From a virus, in IMG/VR virus record IMGVR_UViG_3300021141_000706: 64,000 nucleotides of DNA; one strand, written 5' to 3'. Shown piece after piece: positions 11,439-62,036 of this stretch. The position numbers and the translations under genes were made by a program. The notes under the pieces were generated by a model. That model was not told the DNA's origin, made no database searches, and was given only the letters and a program-made list of their open reading frames with translations. Position 1 is the stretch's first letter; every line of letters starts with the position of its first letter.

Positions 11439-12755
11439 TTATTTACTTGCTTTAATAACTTTAATTCTTTCAGTTTGATATTTCATAATATCAACTTCTT
11501 GATGTTGCTTTAAGAAGTCAACCATCTTTTGATACATTTGAATTGTAATTCTACAATCAGTTAAGGCATCGTGATAGTTAGTCATATTAATTCCAAGAGC
11601 TGGTCCTACTTTAGACATAGAAGATGAAATTAAACCACCATCTCTTGATGATGTTCCAATAAAGTCAATTATATCTTTATATTTAGAATCTACTTCAGAT
11701 AGTTTTTGTAAAAGTGGTAAATAATATAATTGAATTAGCATCTTAGTATCAAATACTTCATTATTAATTTTATGACCATATCTACCAGCCAACATTGCCA
11801 TATCAAAACCAGCATTCTGTGCTATAAATAAACAAGGCTCATAATTGCCAGTCCAATCAAAGAATTTATCTAATATCTCTTGTTCATTTTTGTATTTGTA
11901 TTTACCTGAACCATAATGATTGAATCCTAATACCCATTTAGTTCTATCTTCTGGTGTACTAAATTTAGATTTAGTTTCATCTGTTAATTTAATCTTCTCA
12001 TCAAATAATCCTAATTCATTAAATGTATTTGATTGAAAACTATAATCAGTTGCTAAAGCAGATACTTGAGTTAATTGTTGTTGTTTAGGTCCACCTAAGC
12101 CTGTTGTTTCTGTATCTATCCAAAGCCATGTCATTTTAGATTTAGATTCTAACCATTCTAATATTTGTGGAATAGTTTTATACCACATTTTATTTTCATT
12201 TAGTGATTCAACTATACCTTGATTGTATTTGAAATTTACTTTTTCACCACTTGGCATTGAATAAGTTATATTATCAACATTCTTAACTTCATATTTATAT
12301 TCTGGTTTAACATATTTCTTACCAGTTCCTTTGTTAACATAAGCGATTGTTATATGTGGTTTGTAATCAGGGAAACTATTTGAGTTAGGAAACTCAGAAA
12401 GTTTATCATGTAAATCTTGAAGAGCACCATCAGGGTTAACATTAAACTTAACAACATCATAGTCTTTGTTTTCAAAAACACCAATACCATCAACTTCTAT
12501 ATTAATACTTCCTGTAAATCCTTCAAATACAGATTTAACATCTTCTTCTGTTACACCTTCATGTAAGCCGTATAATATAGTAACATGTGGATTTTCTTGA
12601 ATACCGTGAGCGTCATCACCACCAGTGTAAACATCTTCTGGATTAATGTAACTTGTTATCTCATCCCAGTTACTAACTGGAACTTCAACCATTACACAGC
12701 CATATTCATAACCAGATGATTCTTTTATAAATTGTATATAACTTTTAATTATCAT
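11439..12755 (-). CDS. Acb1/gp57B-like 2H phosphoesterase fused to DEDDh 3'-5' exonuclease
   Basis: HVTILYG and PHITIAY (two HxT); DTETTG, AQNAGFD, HDALTD; N-term MIIKSYIQFIKES. Confidence 0.85.
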   Translation of the reverse strand: MIIKSYIQFIKESSGYEYGCVMVEVPVSNWDEITSYINPEDVYTGGDDAHGIQENPHVTILYGLHEGVTEEDVKSVFEGFTGSINIEVDGIGVFENKDYDVVKFNVNPDGALQDLHDKLSEFPNSNSFPDYKPHITIAYVNKGTGKKYVKPEYKYEVKNVDNITYSMPSGEKVNFKYNQGIVESLNENKMWYKTIPQILEWLESKSKMTWLWIDTETTGLGGPKQQQLTQVSALATDYSFQSNTFNELGLFDEKIKLTDETKSKFSTPEDRTKWVLGFNHYGSGKYKYKNEQEILDKFFDWTGNYEPCLFIAQNAGFDMAMLAGRYGHKINNEVFDTKMLIQLYYLPLLQKLSEVDSKYKDIIDFIGTSSRDGGLISSSMSKVGPALGINMTNYHDALTDCRITIQMYQKMVDFLKQHQEVDIMKYQTERIKVIKASK

Positions 12756-32022: not shown

Positions 32023-33360
32023 ATGAAATTATTTAGATATACAGAATTTATAAAGGAAAGCCTTTCTCAAAATACTATTCCAACATATGAACAAGCATTA
32101 GAACTTTGTTCTGTTGAGGAAGCGCCATTTTATGAATCTAAGATGGTTGTGGATGGATTTAATGTATCTGTATTCAACTATCGTCTTGCTCAATACAAAG
32201 ACTTTGCTTATCCAATTCCAGATAAGCCAGATTTAAAAGGTTATGAAATGAGAGGTTTAACTTTTGTTTTCAATGAAGATGGTTCATTATATAATAGATA
32301 TGTACTACTTGAAAAGTTCTTTAACTTGAATCAAGTACCGGAATCTTTATACTCAGTTGTTAAGAACTATAAAATCAAATTTGTGAATAATAAAGAAGAT
32401 GGTTCTATTGCTTCTTTTGTTAAGTTACCAAACGGTAAGATTGTTGGTAAATCTAAAATGGGATTTGATAACGACCAAGCTGATGGTATTAACAGAGTTT
32501 ATAAAACTAACAAAGAAGTTAAATCTTTAGTTGATTGGGCTTTGAATAATAATATCGTGCCAATTTTTGAATATGTGGCACCAAACAATCGTATTGTTTT
32601 AAGATATCCAAGCGAAGAATTAATCTTATTAAGATTAAGAGATAATGTTACTGGTAAACACATTGATATTAGAGACCACTTAGATAAAGTAGGTTCTATT
32701 AGAGTTGCGCCATTTGAAGATGATGTAAGAGACTTAGATCACTTAGTTGAGCTAACTGCTACTCAAGTAGATAAAGAAGGCTCTATTGTTACTTGTGAAG
32801 ATGAACACGGTAGAGATTTCTTCTTTAAGTTGAAGACTCCTTGGTATTGTGAACGTCACGGTTTACTTACTCAAGACTTATATAGAGAACATATTATTAT
32901 TGGTTATATCTTAGATGATAAGATAGATGATATCTTAGGTCAGATACCAGAAGATGAAAAAGAAGCACATATTAGAATTAATAAAATAATTACTATTGTC
33001 AAAAAATCAATTTCTGATAAAGTGTCAGAAATTGAAAGAGTTTACGAACAATTTGTCAAATCTGGAATTTCTAAAAAAGATTATGCCATAAATCAAAGAA
33101 AAGGTAATCCTAACTTTGGTTTTGTAATGAATATGGTTAAAGCCGATGATTTGAAAAAGATGTCTAAAGAAGAAATTCTTGATATCTATGATAATATGGA
33201 AGACTATGAAAAAGCATTACAAAGATGTGAGCCATATGAAATGGCTAAAGGTTGGTTAAGAGATTTAACTAAGAGATTGAATTTATCAAGAGAATGGTTA
33301 CAAACAAAAGATAAAACTTTATTTTTTCAAGATCCAGAAGAAAGTGAAGATGATAATTAA
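32023..33360 (+). CDS. RNA ligase 1 (T4 Rnl1/gp63-like) with capsid-targeting-like leader
   Basis: EMRGLTF, KFFNLNQ, KEDGS, FEYVAPNNRIV, EG, KLKTPWY; MKLFRYTEFIKES. Confidence 0.9.
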   Translation: MKLFRYTEFIKESLSQNTIPTYEQALELCSVEEAPFYESKMVVDGFNVSVFNYRLAQYKDFAYPIPDKPDLKGYEMRGLTFVFNEDGSLYNRYVLLEKFFNLNQVPESLYSVVKNYKIKFVNNKEDGSIASFVKLPNGKIVGKSKMGFDNDQADGINRVYKTNKEVKSLVDWALNNNIVPIFEYVAPNNRIVLRYPSEELILLRLRDNVTGKHIDIRDHLDKVGSIRVAPFEDDVRDLDHLVELTATQVDKEGSIVTCEDEHGRDFFFKLKTPWYCERHGLLTQDLYREHIIIGYILDDKIDDILGQIPEDEKEAHIRINKIITIVKKSISDKVSEIERVYEQFVKSGISKKDYAINQRKGNPNFGFVMNMVKADDLKKMSKEEILDIYDNMEDYEKALQRCEPYEMAKGWLRDLTKRLNLSREWLQTKDKTLFFQDPEESEDDN

Positions 33361-33761: not shown

Positions 33762-35648
33762 ATGGCAAAAGACGTAATTATTGGAATTGACTTAGGAACT
33801 ACAAACTCATGTGTTGCTGTAGTTGAAGGTGGTGAACCAATTGTAATCACCAACTCTGAAGGAAAAAGAACAACTCCTTCAGTTGTCGGATTTACCGACA
33901 ACGATAGAAAAATTGGAGACCCTGCTAAACGTCAGGCAGTTACCAATCCAAAAAACACTGTTTACTCTATCAAGAGATTCATCGGTAAAGACTTTTCAGC
34001 TTGTACTGACGAGGTAACGAAAGTTCCTTATCAAGTAGTTAAAGCTGGTAAGAATGTACCTGGTGTTCAAATCGGAGATAGAACTTACACACCTCAAGAA
34101 ATCTCAGCTATGATTCTTCAGAAAATGAAGAAAACTGCTGAAGATTATTTAGGGTATGAAGTAAAAAGAGCTGTTATTACAGTTCCTGCTTACTTCGGAG
34201 ACGCTGAAAGAACTGCGACTATTGAAGCTGGTGAAATCGCTGGTTTGAAAGTTGAGCGTATCATCAACGAACCAACTGCTGCTGCCTTGGCTTATGGCTT
34301 AGACAAAAAGAATACAGATTCTAAAATCTTAGTATTCGACTGTGGTGGTGGTACTCATGATGTATCAGTTCTAGAAATTGGTGATGGTGTATTTGAAGTT
34401 AAATCTACTGATGGTGATACTCACTTAGGTGGCGACGACTTCGATAATGCTATTATCGACTGGATGGTTGAAGAATTCAAATCTGAACATTCAATGGATC
34501 TTTCTAAAGATCCAATGGCTCTTCAACGTTTGAAAGATGCGGCTGAAAAGGCTAAGATTGAATTGTCTTCTACTTCTCAATCTGAAATCAACCTTCCTTA
34601 TATCACTGCTCAAGATGGTATGCCTTTACACTTTGTAAAACAATTAACTAAAGCTAAATTCGATCAAATGACTTCAAGTCTTGTTGATAGAGCTATTGCT
34701 TGTGCTAAATCTGCTTTGAAAAGTGCTGGGTTAAAACCGTCTGACATTGATGAAGTTATTCTTGTTGGTGGTTCTACAAGAATTCCTTCTATTCAAGAAG
34801 CTTTAGAAAAGTTTGTTGGTAAGAAACCAAATAAATCAGTTAACCCTGATGAAGTTGTCGCCTTAGGTGCTGCTATTCAAGGTGCTGTATTGACTGGTGG
34901 AATCACAGACGTTCTTCTTCTTGATGTTACTCCACTATCTTTAGGTATTGAAACTATGGGTAGTGTAATGACTAAGTTGATTGAAGCAAATACAACAATT
35001 CCTACCCGTAAGTCTGAAACGTTCTCAACTGCTGCTGACAATCAACCATCTGTAGAAATTCACGTTCTACAAGGTGAAAGACCAATGGCTAAGGATAACC
35101 GTTCGTTAGGTAGATTCCATCTTGATGGTATCATGCCAGCTCCGAGAGGTATTCCTCAAGTAGAGGTAACATTAGACATTGATGCTAATGGTATTCTATC
35201 TGTATCTGCTAAAGATAAAGCTAGTGGAAAAGAAAACAAAATCCGAATTGAAGGTGGTTCTCAACTATCTAAAGAGGAAATTGAAAGAATGAAAGCTGAA
35301 GCTGAATTAAATGCTGAGTCTGACCGTCTTGAAAGAGAATTGGTTGACAAAGTAAATATGGCTGATAATCTTATCTTCCAAACAGAAAAACAAATCAAAG
35401 AATTTGCTGATAAGTTAACTGAAGAAGATAAGTCTGCTTTGAATCAAGACTTAGAGTCATTGAAAACAGCTCATTCAACTAAAGATGCTCAAGCAATTGA
35501 CATAACATCTGAAAAATTGAATAGTACTTGGTCAACAATCTCAACAAGATTATACCAAGAATCTCAATCAGAACCACAGGTTAATACAGATACTGACACT
35601 GGTAATGGCGGTGATGTTGAAGACACTTCTTACGAAGAAGTTAAATAA
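33762..35648 (+). CDS. dnaK: Chaperone DnaK (Hsp70)
   Basis: [43 protein letters not shown]. Confidence 0.98.
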
Positions 35649-55406: not shown

Positions 55407-57617
55407 ATGAGAAAATTGCTAACTATGTTATTTTCTGTGATTAGTTTATTTGCTATTTCACAGAACTGTCCTGAATTAGGACCAAATCAGATTTTACCTT
55501 GTGGTGTAAATACTGCTATATTGACTGCTAACCTAACCGCTTGTGGTGCTGGTACAAATCCAAATCAAACAACTAACTATTCTGTTGCTTCTATTCCTTA
55601 TGTTGCTCAAACAAATACGGGAACTCAGTTATTTATGACTGATGATTCACAACAAGGACCTTTTAATATAGGTTTTAACTTTTGTTTCTTTGGTACAACA
55701 TACACTCAATTTTATATAGGTTCAAATGGTTGGATATCTTTCTCACCCGCACAACCAACAACATTTAGTTCTCAACTAATACCAACTATCAATCCTTTAG
55801 TTCCAAAGAACTGTATTATGGGTCCTTGGCAAGATTGGCATCCAGGTTTAGGAGGTCAAATTAGATATCAAACGTCTGGTGTTGCTCCTTGTAGAAAACT
55901 AACAGTTAGTTGGATTGGGGTTCCAATGTTCTCTTGTACAGGTAATCAAGGAACATTTCATATAGTTATTTATGAATCTAGTAATAATATTGAAAATCAT
56001 ATTCAAAATAAACCGGCTTGTTTAGGTTGGCAAGGTGGTACTGCTGTTGAAGGTATACATAACTTAGCGGGTACAATAGGAATTCCAGTACCTGGTAGAA
56101 ATTCAACTGCTTGGGTTGCTAATAATGATGCTTGGAAATGGACACCTAGTGGACCAGTAGTTACACCTGTATTAACTTGGTATCAAGTTGGTAATCCAGT
56201 TGCTATTGGAACAGGTCCTACTATAACTGTAAATCCATTAGTACCAACACAATATACTTGTCATTTTGTTTACCCTATTTGTAATGCGGGTTGGACTTCT
56301 TGTAATGCTGGTATTGCTGGACCTGGACCAGATACTGTTTTAGTTGTGCCAGGTCCACCTAACATTCTTCTTAATACTTCATTTACCGAACCACTTTGTT
56401 TTAATGATTGTAATGGGACAGCAACTGTTACTCCAATAACAGGAACACCACTATATAATTATTTATGGTCAAATGGTCAAACAACTCAAACTGCTACTAG
56501 TTTATGTGCTGGTGTTTATAGTGTAAATGTAACTGATATAAACGGATGTTCAGCAAATACCACTGTTAATATAACTCAACCAACACAATTGATTTTTGAT
56601 AGTTTAGTTTTATCTGATGTTACTTGCTCATTAAATGATGGACAAATTTTTATTTATCCAAATGGTGGAACACCAACATATGATTATTTTATAGATGGTT
56701 TAATATCAAATGACACAATTACTAATCTCGCTGGTGGTAACTATACAGTTTCTGTAACAGATAATAATGGTTGTACTATAGACTCAATCGTTTTTATTGA
56801 TTTTCCTACACCTATAAATATTTCAGTATCACCAGTTGATACAATTCTTTGTGTTCCAGGTACATTCAATTTTATAAATAACTCTACACCTGCTGTTAAT
56901 ATTGTTAGTTCAATAATAGATTATGGTGATGGATTTACTGATAATATATTATCAAATTCTAACTTTACACATACTTATAGTACAGTTGGTATTTGGGATG
57001 TTATAGTAACAACGGTTAATGATTATGGATGTACATACACACAAACATTTAACAATATAGTAGAAACCGTTTCATTGCCAGTTTCTCAGTTTATGGTTGG
57101 ACCAAACCCAACAACAATGTTTGAGACAACTGTTTCTACATTTGATTATTCAGGTCCTAATATTGTGGCTTGGAATTGGTCAGCACCAGGATCTTTAGAA
57201 CTAACTAGTGGTCTTTCTAATCCAAATTTCACATACCCTGAAGGAATTATAGGTCAGTATTTAATTACTCTAACAGTTCAAAATAGCTTAGGTTGTAGTG
57301 ATTCATCTTCTGTTGTTTTAATTGTTAATCCAGATGTATTAACTTATATACCTAATGCTTTCACTCCGGGTGGTGATGAATTCAATTCAACTTGGAAATT
57401 CTACTTATCAGGTGTTGATGAGCAAGATTTCACTATGTCTATATTCAATAGATGGGGTCAAATGATATGGGAATGTCATGATATAAATGGTGAGTGGGAT
57501 GGATCTTATAATGGGTATTATGTTCCAGATGGTTGTTATTTTTGGAAATCTCAGTTTACGGTTTTAAACTCTTCAGAGAAAAGAACTGTTATGGGTTATG
57601 TAACTATTATCAGATAA
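55407..57617 (+). CDS. Secreted protein with SprB-like repeats, PKD domains and T9SS type-B (gliding-motility) C-terminal domain
   Basis: Signal peptide; YLWSNG..VTD.NGC repeats; YIPNAFTPGGD, IFNRWG, WDG, GYVTIIR. Confidence 0.88.
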   Translation: MRKLLTMLFSVISLFAISQNCPELGPNQILPCGVNTAILTANLTACGAGTNPNQTTNYSVASIPYVAQTNTGTQLFMTDDSQQGPFNIGFNFCFFGTTYTQFYIGSNGWISFSPAQPTTFSSQLIPTINPLVPKNCIMGPWQDWHPGLGGQIRYQTSGVAPCRKLTVSWIGVPMFSCTGNQGTFHIVIYESSNNIENHIQNKPACLGWQGGTAVEGIHNLAGTIGIPVPGRNSTAWVANNDAWKWTPSGPVVTPVLTWYQVGNPVAIGTGPTITVNPLVPTQYTCHFVYPICNAGWTSCNAGIAGPGPDTVLVVPGPPNILLNTSFTEPLCFNDCNGTATVTPITGTPLYNYLWSNGQTTQTATSLCAGVYSVNVTDINGCSANTTVNITQPTQLIFDSLVLSDVTCSLNDGQIFIYPNGGTPTYDYFIDGLISNDTITNLAGGNYTVSVTDNNGCTIDSIVFIDFPTPINISVSPVDTILCVPGTFNFINNSTPAVNIVSSIIDYGDGFTDNILSNSNFTHTYSTVGIWDVIVTTVNDYGCTYTQTFNNIVETVSLPVSQFMVGPNPTTMFETTVSTFDYSGPNIVAWNWSAPGSLELTSGLSNPNFTYPEGIIGQYLITLTVQNSLGCSDSSSVVLIVNPDVLTYIPNAFTPGGDEFNSTWKFYLSGVDEQDFTMSIFNRWGQMIWECHDINGEWDGSYNGYYVPDGCYFWKSQFTVLNSSEKRTVMGYVTIIR

Positions 57618-60828: not shown

Positions 60829-61293
60829 ATGGTGTCTTTGAATAAAGAATATAATCAAATTGTGAACCTTACTAAATTCAATGTGAATTTTAGTAAGTTT
60901 ATTCATAATAATGACTTATTGAGTCATAGTCCAGACTATATTCTTGAAAAATATAATCATTGGATTGGATTTGAACCAACTATTGAGTGTAAATTATATA
61001 CACCAGATGATATGACTGATTTTTTTCTTAAATATTGGAAAAGATGGGGTATATTTGAAGAATATTCTGTGAAAAATATTTTGATGTATCTTTACTCAAC
61101 TAGAAGTATGAATCTAGTATTAATGTCTGAGAAGTTTGAAGAGTATATCGGGCCAATGAATATGATATCAGATATACCAGATAAAAAAGGATTACATCAT
61201 AAATCAGATTTATTTATTAATGATGTATTAGAAAAGAATAAAGACAATGTAAAAGTTGTTTTAAGAGATATGAAAATTGGAAGTATAATATAA
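60829..61293 (+). CDS. Hypothetical early protein with C-terminal tag
   Basis: Ends VLRDMKIGSII. Confidence 0.6.
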   Translation: MVSLNKEYNQIVNLTKFNVNFSKFIHNNDLLSHSPDYILEKYNHWIGFEPTIECKLYTPDDMTDFFLKYWKRWGIFEEYSVKNILMYLYSTRSMNLVLMSEKFEEYIGPMNMISDIPDKKGLHHKSDLFINDVLEKNKDNVKVVLRDMKIGSII

Positions 61294-61527
61294 GTCAGAG
61301 AAGCTATCGCTGGTAGAAATACTAGAGAAACTTCGACACTACAGAACCTAACACGGGAGAATAAGTAAAGAAATTGAAAGTTCGTTTGTACCGAGGAAGT
61401 AGCAACACATACAGACTTAGGGTATCGGTTCCCCTTTGATGGTCGGGTTGTGGCAGTCCTTCGGGACCACTGAAAGGTGAGATAAATGATAGCTTAAAGC
61501 AAAATGTCGGGTACGCTCAACTTATAT
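61288..61527 (+). ncRNA. rnpB: RNase P RNA, compact phage-encoded form
   Basis: P1 61288-300/61516-527; P2 AAGCTATCG/TGATAGCTT; P3 with GAAA loop; P4 AC(U)UCGACA/UGUCGGGU with bulged U; CR-IV-like AGATAAATGA; UUCG and GAAA hairpins. Confidence 0.8.
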
Positions 61528-61571
61528 AACTTTCAATTATAAAATAGTAACAAATAAAAAATAAAATAAAT

Positions 61572-62036
61572 ATGAAAATGATTAAATTCTTGATGTTGGC
61601 TCTTGTAGCAACAATGTTCTTAACTTCTTGTACTGAGAACTATTCTAATGGTGAACGTATTGGTATGATTACCAAATTCTCACAAAAAGGTCTTGTTTGG
61701 AACTCTTGGGAAGGCTCATTAAACACAACACAAACTGGTATGAATAGTGCCACTCCGTTTGAGTTCTCTGTTGATAATGATGTAAATGATGCTAAAGTTA
61801 TCTCTACTTTAGATTCAGCGGCTACCGAAGGATGGAAAGTTAAAATTAAATATCATGAAACATTCGGTAAGAACTGGCTTTCTAATAGAGGTGAAACTAA
61901 TTACTTTGTTAAAGAAGTAGAAGTTTTAGATAGAGACCCAATGGGTAGCGTATTTGGTAACTCAAATAATACAGGTGGTAAAGTTGTTGACACAATCTAT
62001 GTGGTAATCGTTCCAAAAGAAAAAGTAATTAAATAA
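61572..62036 (+). CDS. Conserved lipoprotein
   Basis: Lipobox LTSC; YSNGERIG..KFSQKG..WEG..FEFSV. Confidence 0.8.
   Translation: MKMIKFLMLALVATMFLTSCTENYSNGERIGMITKFSQKGLVWNSWEGSLNTTQTGMNSATPFEFSVDNDVNDAKVISTLDSAATEGWKVKIKYHETFGKNWLSNRGETNYFVKEVEVLDRDPMGSVFGNSNNTGGKVVDTIYVVIVPKEKVIK

Follow-up and report, generated by a model that had tools for sequence, protein, structure and literature searches.

A probable miniature bacterial-type RNase P RNA gene in huge phages

Few ribozymes are universal; one of them is RNase P RNA, which trims new tRNAs and, to our knowledge, has so far been regarded as a gene of cells and organelles only. The bacterial type-A RNA, represented by Escherichia coli rnpB and the Rfam family RF00010, is ~377 nt long. 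Natural RNase P RNAs without the specificity domain (S-domain) exist (PMC7191817): in type T of the Thermoproteaceae, including Pyrobaculum (RF02357), the S-domain is nearly lost and the catalytic domain (C-domain) is kept (PMC3012483, PMC3579882, PMC7191817). Engineered RNAs reduced to the C-domain (Eco CP RPR and Pfu CP RPR) cleave substrates with and without protein, and P18 is dispensable (PMC5839562). Here, we describe a block at positions 61288-61527 of a 64,000-nt stretch of viral DNA (IMG/VR record IMGVR_UViG_3300021141_000706, hereafter the window), which is probably the gene for a miniature type-A RNase P ribozyme of a huge lake-water phage with Bacteroidota-like hosts. This reading is supported by the architecture with its conservation and covariation, by a match to RNase P models that is weak but specific, and by the co-occurrence of the RNA with phage-borne tRNA arrays and rnpA. 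A literature search turned up no paper on an RNase P RNA of phages or other viruses, and the phage miniature RNase P RNA as a class appears to be unpublished.

The block comprises ~240 nt without an open reading frame (ORF), has a GC content of 41-43% compared with 20-33% in its flanks, and occurs once in the window. Its elements follow the order P1, P2, P3, P4 5' strand, P5, an inner domain, P5 3' strand, P15-17, and the 3' strands of P2, P4 and P1, with P4 forming a pseudoknot over P2; the E. coli rnpB and RF00010 RNAs have the same helix order (P1-P2-P3-P4...P2'-P4'-P1'). The bulged U of P4 is U69 in E. coli and U61333 in the phage RNA. The P5 3' strand and J5/15 read GGAG followed by C247-A248-A249 in E. 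coli and GUAG followed by CAA (61399-61405) here, P15 has a length of 4 bp in both, and the 3' side of L15 is GGGUA (G291-A295) in E. coli and GGGU (61445-61448) here, in a UCGGGU flank that compares with CCGGGUA in type A. J18/2 (CR-IV) is AGAUGAAUGA (328-337) in E. coli and AGAUAAAUGA (61480-61489) in the phage RNA, with AGATAAATGA confirmed at these window positions, and AGAUNAAUGA stands ahead of the P2 3' strand in both RNAs. In sister copies, the agreement with E. coli rnpB and the RF00010 consensus extends to CR-I with the start of P4 (GAGGAA-GU-U-C) and to CR-V (AACAGAA), the latter being ACAGAACCCGGCUUA in E. coli and RF00010. P6 pairs 82-85 with 276-279 in E. coli, from the strand after P5 to the P17 loop, and has the identical topology in the phage RNA. 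As predicted from these elements, the catalytic domain is complete, with P1, P2, P3, the P4 and P6 pseudoknots, P5, P15-P17, J5/15, CR-IV and CR-V. The motifs listed in an earlier note on this DNA are all present where it placed them, and its assignments of P1, P2, P3, CR-I, CR-IV and CR-V were correct.

The phage RNA differs from type A in its size (~215-260 nt across the family), in having a short helix and a hairpin in place of P7-P14, in lacking P18 in most copies, in its rewritten P4 base pairs, in being virus-borne, and in being missed by RF00010. Near-complete loss of the S-domain with retention of the C-domain is shared with type T, a likeness that we consider an analogy not implying common descent: type T is archaeal and cellular and works with archaeal proteins, whereas the phage RNA has the type-A P15-P17/P6 module and the L15 GGU and co-occurs with bacterial-type RnpA. 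RF02357 was absent from the cmscan output, in which the best member of the clan was RF00373. The phage architecture is plausible as an enzyme because C-domain-only RNAs are active (PMC5839562), although those are laboratory deletions with lower efficiency, and the phage RNA is natural, under purifying selection, and carries a conserved stub.

Comparison with 50,697 phage records gave a single match, at 73% identity, in LR745206.1, a 634,780-bp uncultured phage; when a 9-kb query around the block was used, the match to this genome was limited to the RNA block. An initial 15-mer scan of viral contigs yielded 26 loci, only one of which blastn recognized as a homologue. Pattern scans recovered further copies from IMG/VR contigs of 476 kb, 385 kb and 29 kb and from ~20 lake, marine and other metagenome contigs; 14 metagenome loci with the 18-mer alone contained no Rfam family. 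A covariance model (R1) built from 23 copies (alignment A3) matched the window copy at 61286-61529 (261.9 bits) and detected the RNA once, and no more than once, in every large genome that carries it. It added three: one scoring close to the training set, in a 483-kb contig (G003, 209.8 bits), and two divergent ones, in the 642-kb phage LR756502.1 (89 bits) and in a 58-kb fragment (G007, copy L095, 76.7 bits), the contig of the last also holding one of the 15-mer loci (L002). The resulting 26 copies come from huge phages (385-642 kb) and from lake and marine metagenomes. The 634-kb and 642-kb genomes are described as complete, are among the largest known phage genomes, and belong to the Mahaphage clade with predicted Bacteroidetes hosts; RNase P was not mentioned in their description (Al-Shayeb et al. 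2020, PMC7162821).

The structure is supported by comparison, since folding of the single sequence was no better than that of shuffles on either strand (z = -0.09 and -0.21) and proves nothing. RNAalifold recovered P1, P3, P4 and the inner hairpins unaided from the 23-copy alignment. The full structure was counted on three alignments, with P4 and P6 written as pseudoknots. In the 23 copies aligned with MAFFT, 96.0% of cells were paired, compared with 33-38% when the pairing was slid, and 19 of 69 pairs showed compensatory changes. The corresponding values were 95.8%, 31-37% and 36/66 for 24 copies and 95.1%, 33-37% and 38/62 for 26 copies, both sets being fitted to R1, which favours the nested helices of the model; many of the 26 copies are closely related, and the cell counts greatly overstate the number of independent covariation events. 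None of 500 shuffles matched the observed covariation by any measure (26-copy count), and P2 and P6 covary even though they lie outside the covariance model. The order of P1, P2, P3 and P4 is backed by covariation in each helix: nine of the 11 P1 pairs are compensatory and 97% of its cells are paired, one P2 pair alternates among G-C, C-G and U-A, and P2 and P4, for which the earlier note had proposed covariation in related phages as a check, have compensatory changes in 3/8 and 4/8 pairs. The RNA is read from the + strand because G-U pairs in P2, P3 and P4 would become A-C on the opposite strand.

P4 has a constant geometry of 3 bp, a bulged U and 4-5 bp, which is realized in three compensated versions: ACU-U-CGACA with UGUCGGGU in the window, AGU-U-CGCGA with UCGCGGCU, and AGU-U-CAAC with GUUGACU. 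No aligned copy lacks or alters the bulged U, and the earlier description of a non-canonical, compensated P4 that keeps this nucleotide therefore holds across the family. P6 is likewise found in compensated versions (GAACC/GGUUC, CUUCU/AGAAG and CAACA/UGUUG, with a further change of G-C to U-A in L062). The CUAC/GUAG of P5 is replaced by CACC/GGUG in L074 and L095, and the CACA/UGUG of P15 by CUC/GAG among copies. The GGU of L15 is present in every copy and is GGGUA in L095, the same as in E. coli. J5/15 is CAA without change in the 23 A3 copies, AAA in L095 and CGA in L094. The joining strands of the sister copies are close to the canonical ones: CR-V is AACAGAAUCGCGGCUA in the sisters against a canonical ACAGAANCCGGCUUA, CR-I is GAGGAAGUUCG against GAGGAAAGUCC, and CR-IV is AGAUAAAUGA against AGAUGAAUG. 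The window copy has GCAAAAUGUCGGGUA at CR-V and GAGAAACUUCG at CR-I. The changes in GAGGAA and ACAGAA, at window positions 61328 and 61499-61502 (A3 columns 54, 229 and 232), switch jointly between two P4 versions, which could reflect a J3/4-J2/4 tertiary contact or merely one common lineage split.

These comparisons also bear on the inner part of the domain. The sequence that the earlier note had taken as CR-II, GGAAGTAGCAACAC, is the P5 3' strand (GTAG with CTAC) followed by the J5/15 CAA. A CR-II reading of GUAGCAAC was dropped, as compensation in L062, L074 and L095 backs P5, P6 and P15 instead; two early pairings, AACCU/GGGUU and CUACAG/UUGUGG, were dropped for want of the compensatory support that P5, P6 and P15 have in these copies. 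Two further parts of the note were revised. The hairpin GTCC-TTCG-GGAC, described there as a UUCG-capped P15, is an optional insertion at the P18 position (6/23 copies), the true P15/P16 lying at 61406-61452, and the supposed lack of a CCA-pairing GGU loop does not apply, as the true P15/16 loop reads GGGU (61445-61448; compare type-A GGGUA).

The relatives matched an RNase P model at the expected place. The sister copy L029, which differs mainly in the P4 strands, aligned end to end (positions 1-288) with RNaseP_arch (RF00373) in cmscan, with 20 bits and an E-value of 4.3e-4. Scanning whole genomes with RF00373 picked out the RNA locus and nothing else in two phages, of 642 kb (32.4 bits, E 3.6e-8) and 385 kb (28.2 bits, E 4.3e-7). 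A structured phage RNA of unrelated origin that resembles RNase P by chance is extremely unlikely: the uninformative single-sequence fold and the lack of a gathering-level Rfam hit are what such an RNA would give, but ten helices in canonical order, both pseudoknots, and five conserved joining strands that agree in sequence and place would all have to be coincidental, as would the position of the only hit in two whole genomes.

The genomes that carry the RNA are rich in tRNA genes, with 59, 41 and 61 matches in three related genomes. We sampled 46 genes from three arrays (L078 in G002, L079 in G001 and L080 in LR745206). Many are spaced by only 4-7 nt, often A-rich; of the 46 leaders, 31 have U at position -1, 38 have A at -2 and 41 have A at -4. 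Bacterial RNase P cleaves best in an A(-2)U(-1) context, and its A248 reads U(-1) (PMC10731613). RnpA would be the likely protein partner of the phage RNA, as for type-A RNase P RNA: a compact RnpA (PF00825, ~100 aa, with a KKFKRAVDRNRIKR motif and RNR) is encoded in five of the six related RNA-bearing records (LR745206, LR756502, G001, G003 and G007), which makes the use of host RnpA suggested in the earlier note doubtful. In the relatives, rnpA does not lie next to the RNA gene, and this compact type has 645 metagenome relatives, several of them on contigs >100 kb.

On balance, we lean slightly towards the view that huge phages own a full RNase P holoenzyme, a catalytic-domain-only ribozyme with a compact RnpA, specialized for arrays of CCA-less tRNAs with 4-7-nt spacing. 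In the most likely mechanism, the phage RNA would bind RnpA, encoded by the phage in most relatives and otherwise by the host, and the enzyme would cut the A-rich spacers or leaders of CCA-less pre-tRNAs at each tRNA 5' end, with A61404 (the A248 equivalent) predicted to read U(-1) and the bulged U61333 to hold the catalytic Mg2+. A ribozyme derived from RNase P could also have taken on a new job, cleaving phage polycistronic mRNAs, host RNAs or guided tRNA-like structures with or without RnpA. Such a role would suit the loss of the tRNA-selecting S-domain, the conserved internal loop of the stub that replaces it, and the position of the gene among protein genes, outside a tRNA array and in 64 kb without a tRNA, and RNAs other than tRNAs are known substrates of bacterial RNase P (PMC10731613). 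We consider it unlikely, given that the A248 equivalent, L15 GGU and CR-IV, which are contacts to the acceptor end and leader, are kept, that phage tRNA leaders have the A(-2)U(-1) signature, and that the RNA-bearing phages are all rich in tRNAs.

Several observations, besides the close relatedness of many copies, weigh against an RNase P assignment or against tRNAs as its substrate. Rfam at gathering thresholds gave no hit in the window, and at E-values up to 10 the region 61150-61650 gave no RNase P hit and only a chance snoRNA match; RF00010 had no match over the entire LR745206. The RF00373 scores of the relatives are 20-32 bits compared with a gathering score of 84, and no Rfam family attained its own gathering threshold. 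The model check proposed in the earlier note was negative for the window and gave hits below the gathering score at the locus in its sisters. R1 found only noise at the E. coli rnpB locus, which says little because R1 (effective sequence number ~1) is unable to bridge the missing S-domain. The window copy departs from strongly conserved letters (GAGGAA to GAGAAA, ACAGAA to GCAAAA). ARAGORN detected no tRNA or tmRNA in the 64-kb window, rnpA was not found there either, and G002, a 95%-complete record that bears the RNA, has no detectable rnpA. The GGU loop of type-A RNase P pairs with the CCA of tRNA; since none of the 46 sampled tRNA genes encodes the 3'-CCA, it is not obvious what the conserved GGU would pair with in the primary transcripts.

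The altered CR-I and CR-V letters of the window copy and scores far under every RNase P model would be expected of a non-catalytic mimic, a sponge or regulator that retains the surfaces for RnpA and tRNA binding and, for example, titrates host RnpA or pre-tRNAs to stop host tRNA maturation. This is very unlikely in our assessment: P4 geometry and the bulged U have been kept through three compensatory sets, neither of which a protein sponge would need, and the phages' own rnpA argues for making an enzyme, not blocking one. The proposal of a phage-borne, size-reduced RNase P RNA with which the earlier note began is upheld by conservation, covariation and motif matches, and a miniature type-A ribozyme remains the probable identity of the block. 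Its elements and the adjacent ORFs are listed in Table 1.

Table 1 Features of the RNase P RNA-like block and its flanks in the window.
Feature	Position	Strand	Remarks
Whole RNA gene	61288..61527	+	Ends are the two P1 strands; conservation starts and stops there
P1, outer pairs	ATATAAGT 61288-61295 with ACTTATAT 61520-61527	+	
P1, inner pairs	GAG 61298-61300 with CTC 61516-61518	+	
P2	AAGCTATC 61301-61308 with GATAGCTT 61488-61495	+	3/8 pairs compensatory
P3 hairpin, CTGGTA-GAAA-TACTAG	61310..61325	+	GAAA loop; 4/5 pairs compensatory
CR-I equivalent (GAGAAA) and P4 5' strand	61325..61338	+	
P4	ACTTCGACA 61330-61338 with TGTCGGGT 61505-61512	+	U61333 bulged; 4/8 pairs compensatory
P5	CUAC 61339-61342 with GUAG 61399-61402	+	From the cmscan alignment to RNaseP_arch
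P6 pseudoknot	GAACC 61344-61348 with P17 loop GGUUC 61427-61431	+	100% paired
Stub in place of the specificity domain, ~44 nt	61352..61395	+	P7-like helix, 61352-61356 with 61391-61395, around a variable hairpin
J5/15, CAA	61403..61405	+	Equivalent of E. coli C247-A248-A249; position fits RF00010 consensus GgaG-CAA-ggcc
P15/P16/P17 region	61406..61452	+	
P15	61406-61409 with 61449-61452	+	1/4 pairs compensatory
P16	61414-61417 with 61441-61444	+	3/4 pairs compensatory
P17	61419-61422 with 61432-61435	+	2/4 pairs compensatory
L15 internal loop, 3' side, GGGU	61445-61448	+	Between the P16 and P15 3' strands
Two lineage-specific hairpins at the P18 position	61456..61479	+	In 6/23 A3 copies, absent from the rest
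UUCG-capped hairpin, GTCC-TTCG-GGAC	61456-61467	+	
GAAA-capped hairpin, CACT-GAAA-GGTG	61468-61479	+	
CR-IV equivalent AGAUAAAUGA (J18/2), then P2 3' strand	61480..61495	+	Lines up with AGucGAAUG in the RNase P model
J2/4 and P4 3' strand (CR-V equivalent): AAAGCAAAA, UGUCGGGU, A	61496..61513	+	
Upstream ORF, 154 aa	60829..61293	+	No Pfam family; synteny with the RNA in most loci
Downstream ORF, 154 aa	61572..62036	+	Signal-peptide/lipoprotein-like start; adjacency to the RNA not kept in all loci

In agreement with the earlier note, the specificity domain is reduced, to the ~44-nt stub, and P7-P14 with CR-II and CR-III are absent between P6 and the P5 3' strand. The two stub helices have compensatory changes in 4/5 and 2/4 pairs, and its hairpin varies by lineage in length and sequence. 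An asymmetric internal loop in the stub (window 61357-61358 vs 61384-61390, GA opposite GUUWNUA) is conserved even in the divergent copy of the 642-kb phage. Other copies carry additional insertions: P3 bears an inserted hairpin in LR745206 and G003, and the divergent copy of G007 (L095:1501-1760, - strand) has ~35 extra nt forming hairpins in J2/4, 3' of the P2 3' strand. CR-IV and P2 of this copy were misaligned by the covariance model and were read by eye as AAGACAAAUG followed by GGUAUC, with the partner GAUGCC.

Two metagenome loci have unusual arrangements. A 1,145-nt contig (L054:52-723, - strand) holds two RNA copies ~450 nt apart, both of which follow the same ORF tail. The window-type P4 and the two extra hairpins are found in one copy and a GAGGAAGUUCGCG-type P4 in the other; either the RNA is truly duplicated in tandem, or co-occurring strains were assembled into a chimera. 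In L037:754-974 (- strand), the window-type P4 5' strand is joined to the 3' strand of the other type and three P4 pairs are broken; this is probably a chimeric assembly, not a dead gene, given the low coverage of the contig (2.8x).

The upstream ORF ends with a stop codon (61291-61293) that falls within the P1 5' strand, which suggests that the RNA is processed from a longer transcript. Alternatively, there may be a promoter within the tail of this ORF, the last ~40 nt of which (61250-61293) are conserved at the nucleotide level in most loci. A scan for sigma-70 promoters and terminators gave counts at chance level and no intrinsic terminator; the best -10 box (61284-61289) was rejected because transcription would start inside P1, which is part of the RNA by covariation. 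In the metagenome collection, 70 indexed blocks contain the exact protein of the upstream ORF, and gene callers keep the RNA gap empty.

Among the window proteins are DnaK, a T4-type topoisomerase II, an RNA ligase 1, and a fusion of a 2H phosphoesterase with RNase T. The DnaK/Hsp70 is full-length (33762-35648, + strand; 830 bits to PF00012). The T4-type RNA ligase 1 and the fusion of a 2H phosphoesterase (2'-5' RNA ligase/Acb1-like) with an RNase T exonuclease, at 32023-33360 (+ strand) and 11439-12755 (- strand), may be a tRNA-repair or anti-defence kit. A 736-aa protein (55407-57617, + strand) has SprB repeats, PKD domains and a CHU_C type IX secretion sorting domain. The CHU_C type IX sorting domain is a Bacteroidota-specific export signal, and its presence on a phage protein points to a Bacteroidota host for the window phage.

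The family shows how much base-pair replacement P4 tolerates without loss of its bulged U or its helix geometry, and it exposes a gap in current covariance models, by which the whole family was missed. It would give structural and mechanistic studies a bacterial-type RNase P that is minimal by nature, and it bears on how tRNAs are chosen without the domain that reads the T-loop, on the role of the stub, and on the retention of GGU despite CCA-less tRNA genes. If the holoenzyme is real, it would free phage tRNA maturation from the host enzyme and would mean that RNase P can do without its specificity domain in vivo. A catalytic-domain-only viral version conserved across phages of 385-642 kb would extend the translation functions of giant phages, adding tRNA 5' maturation.

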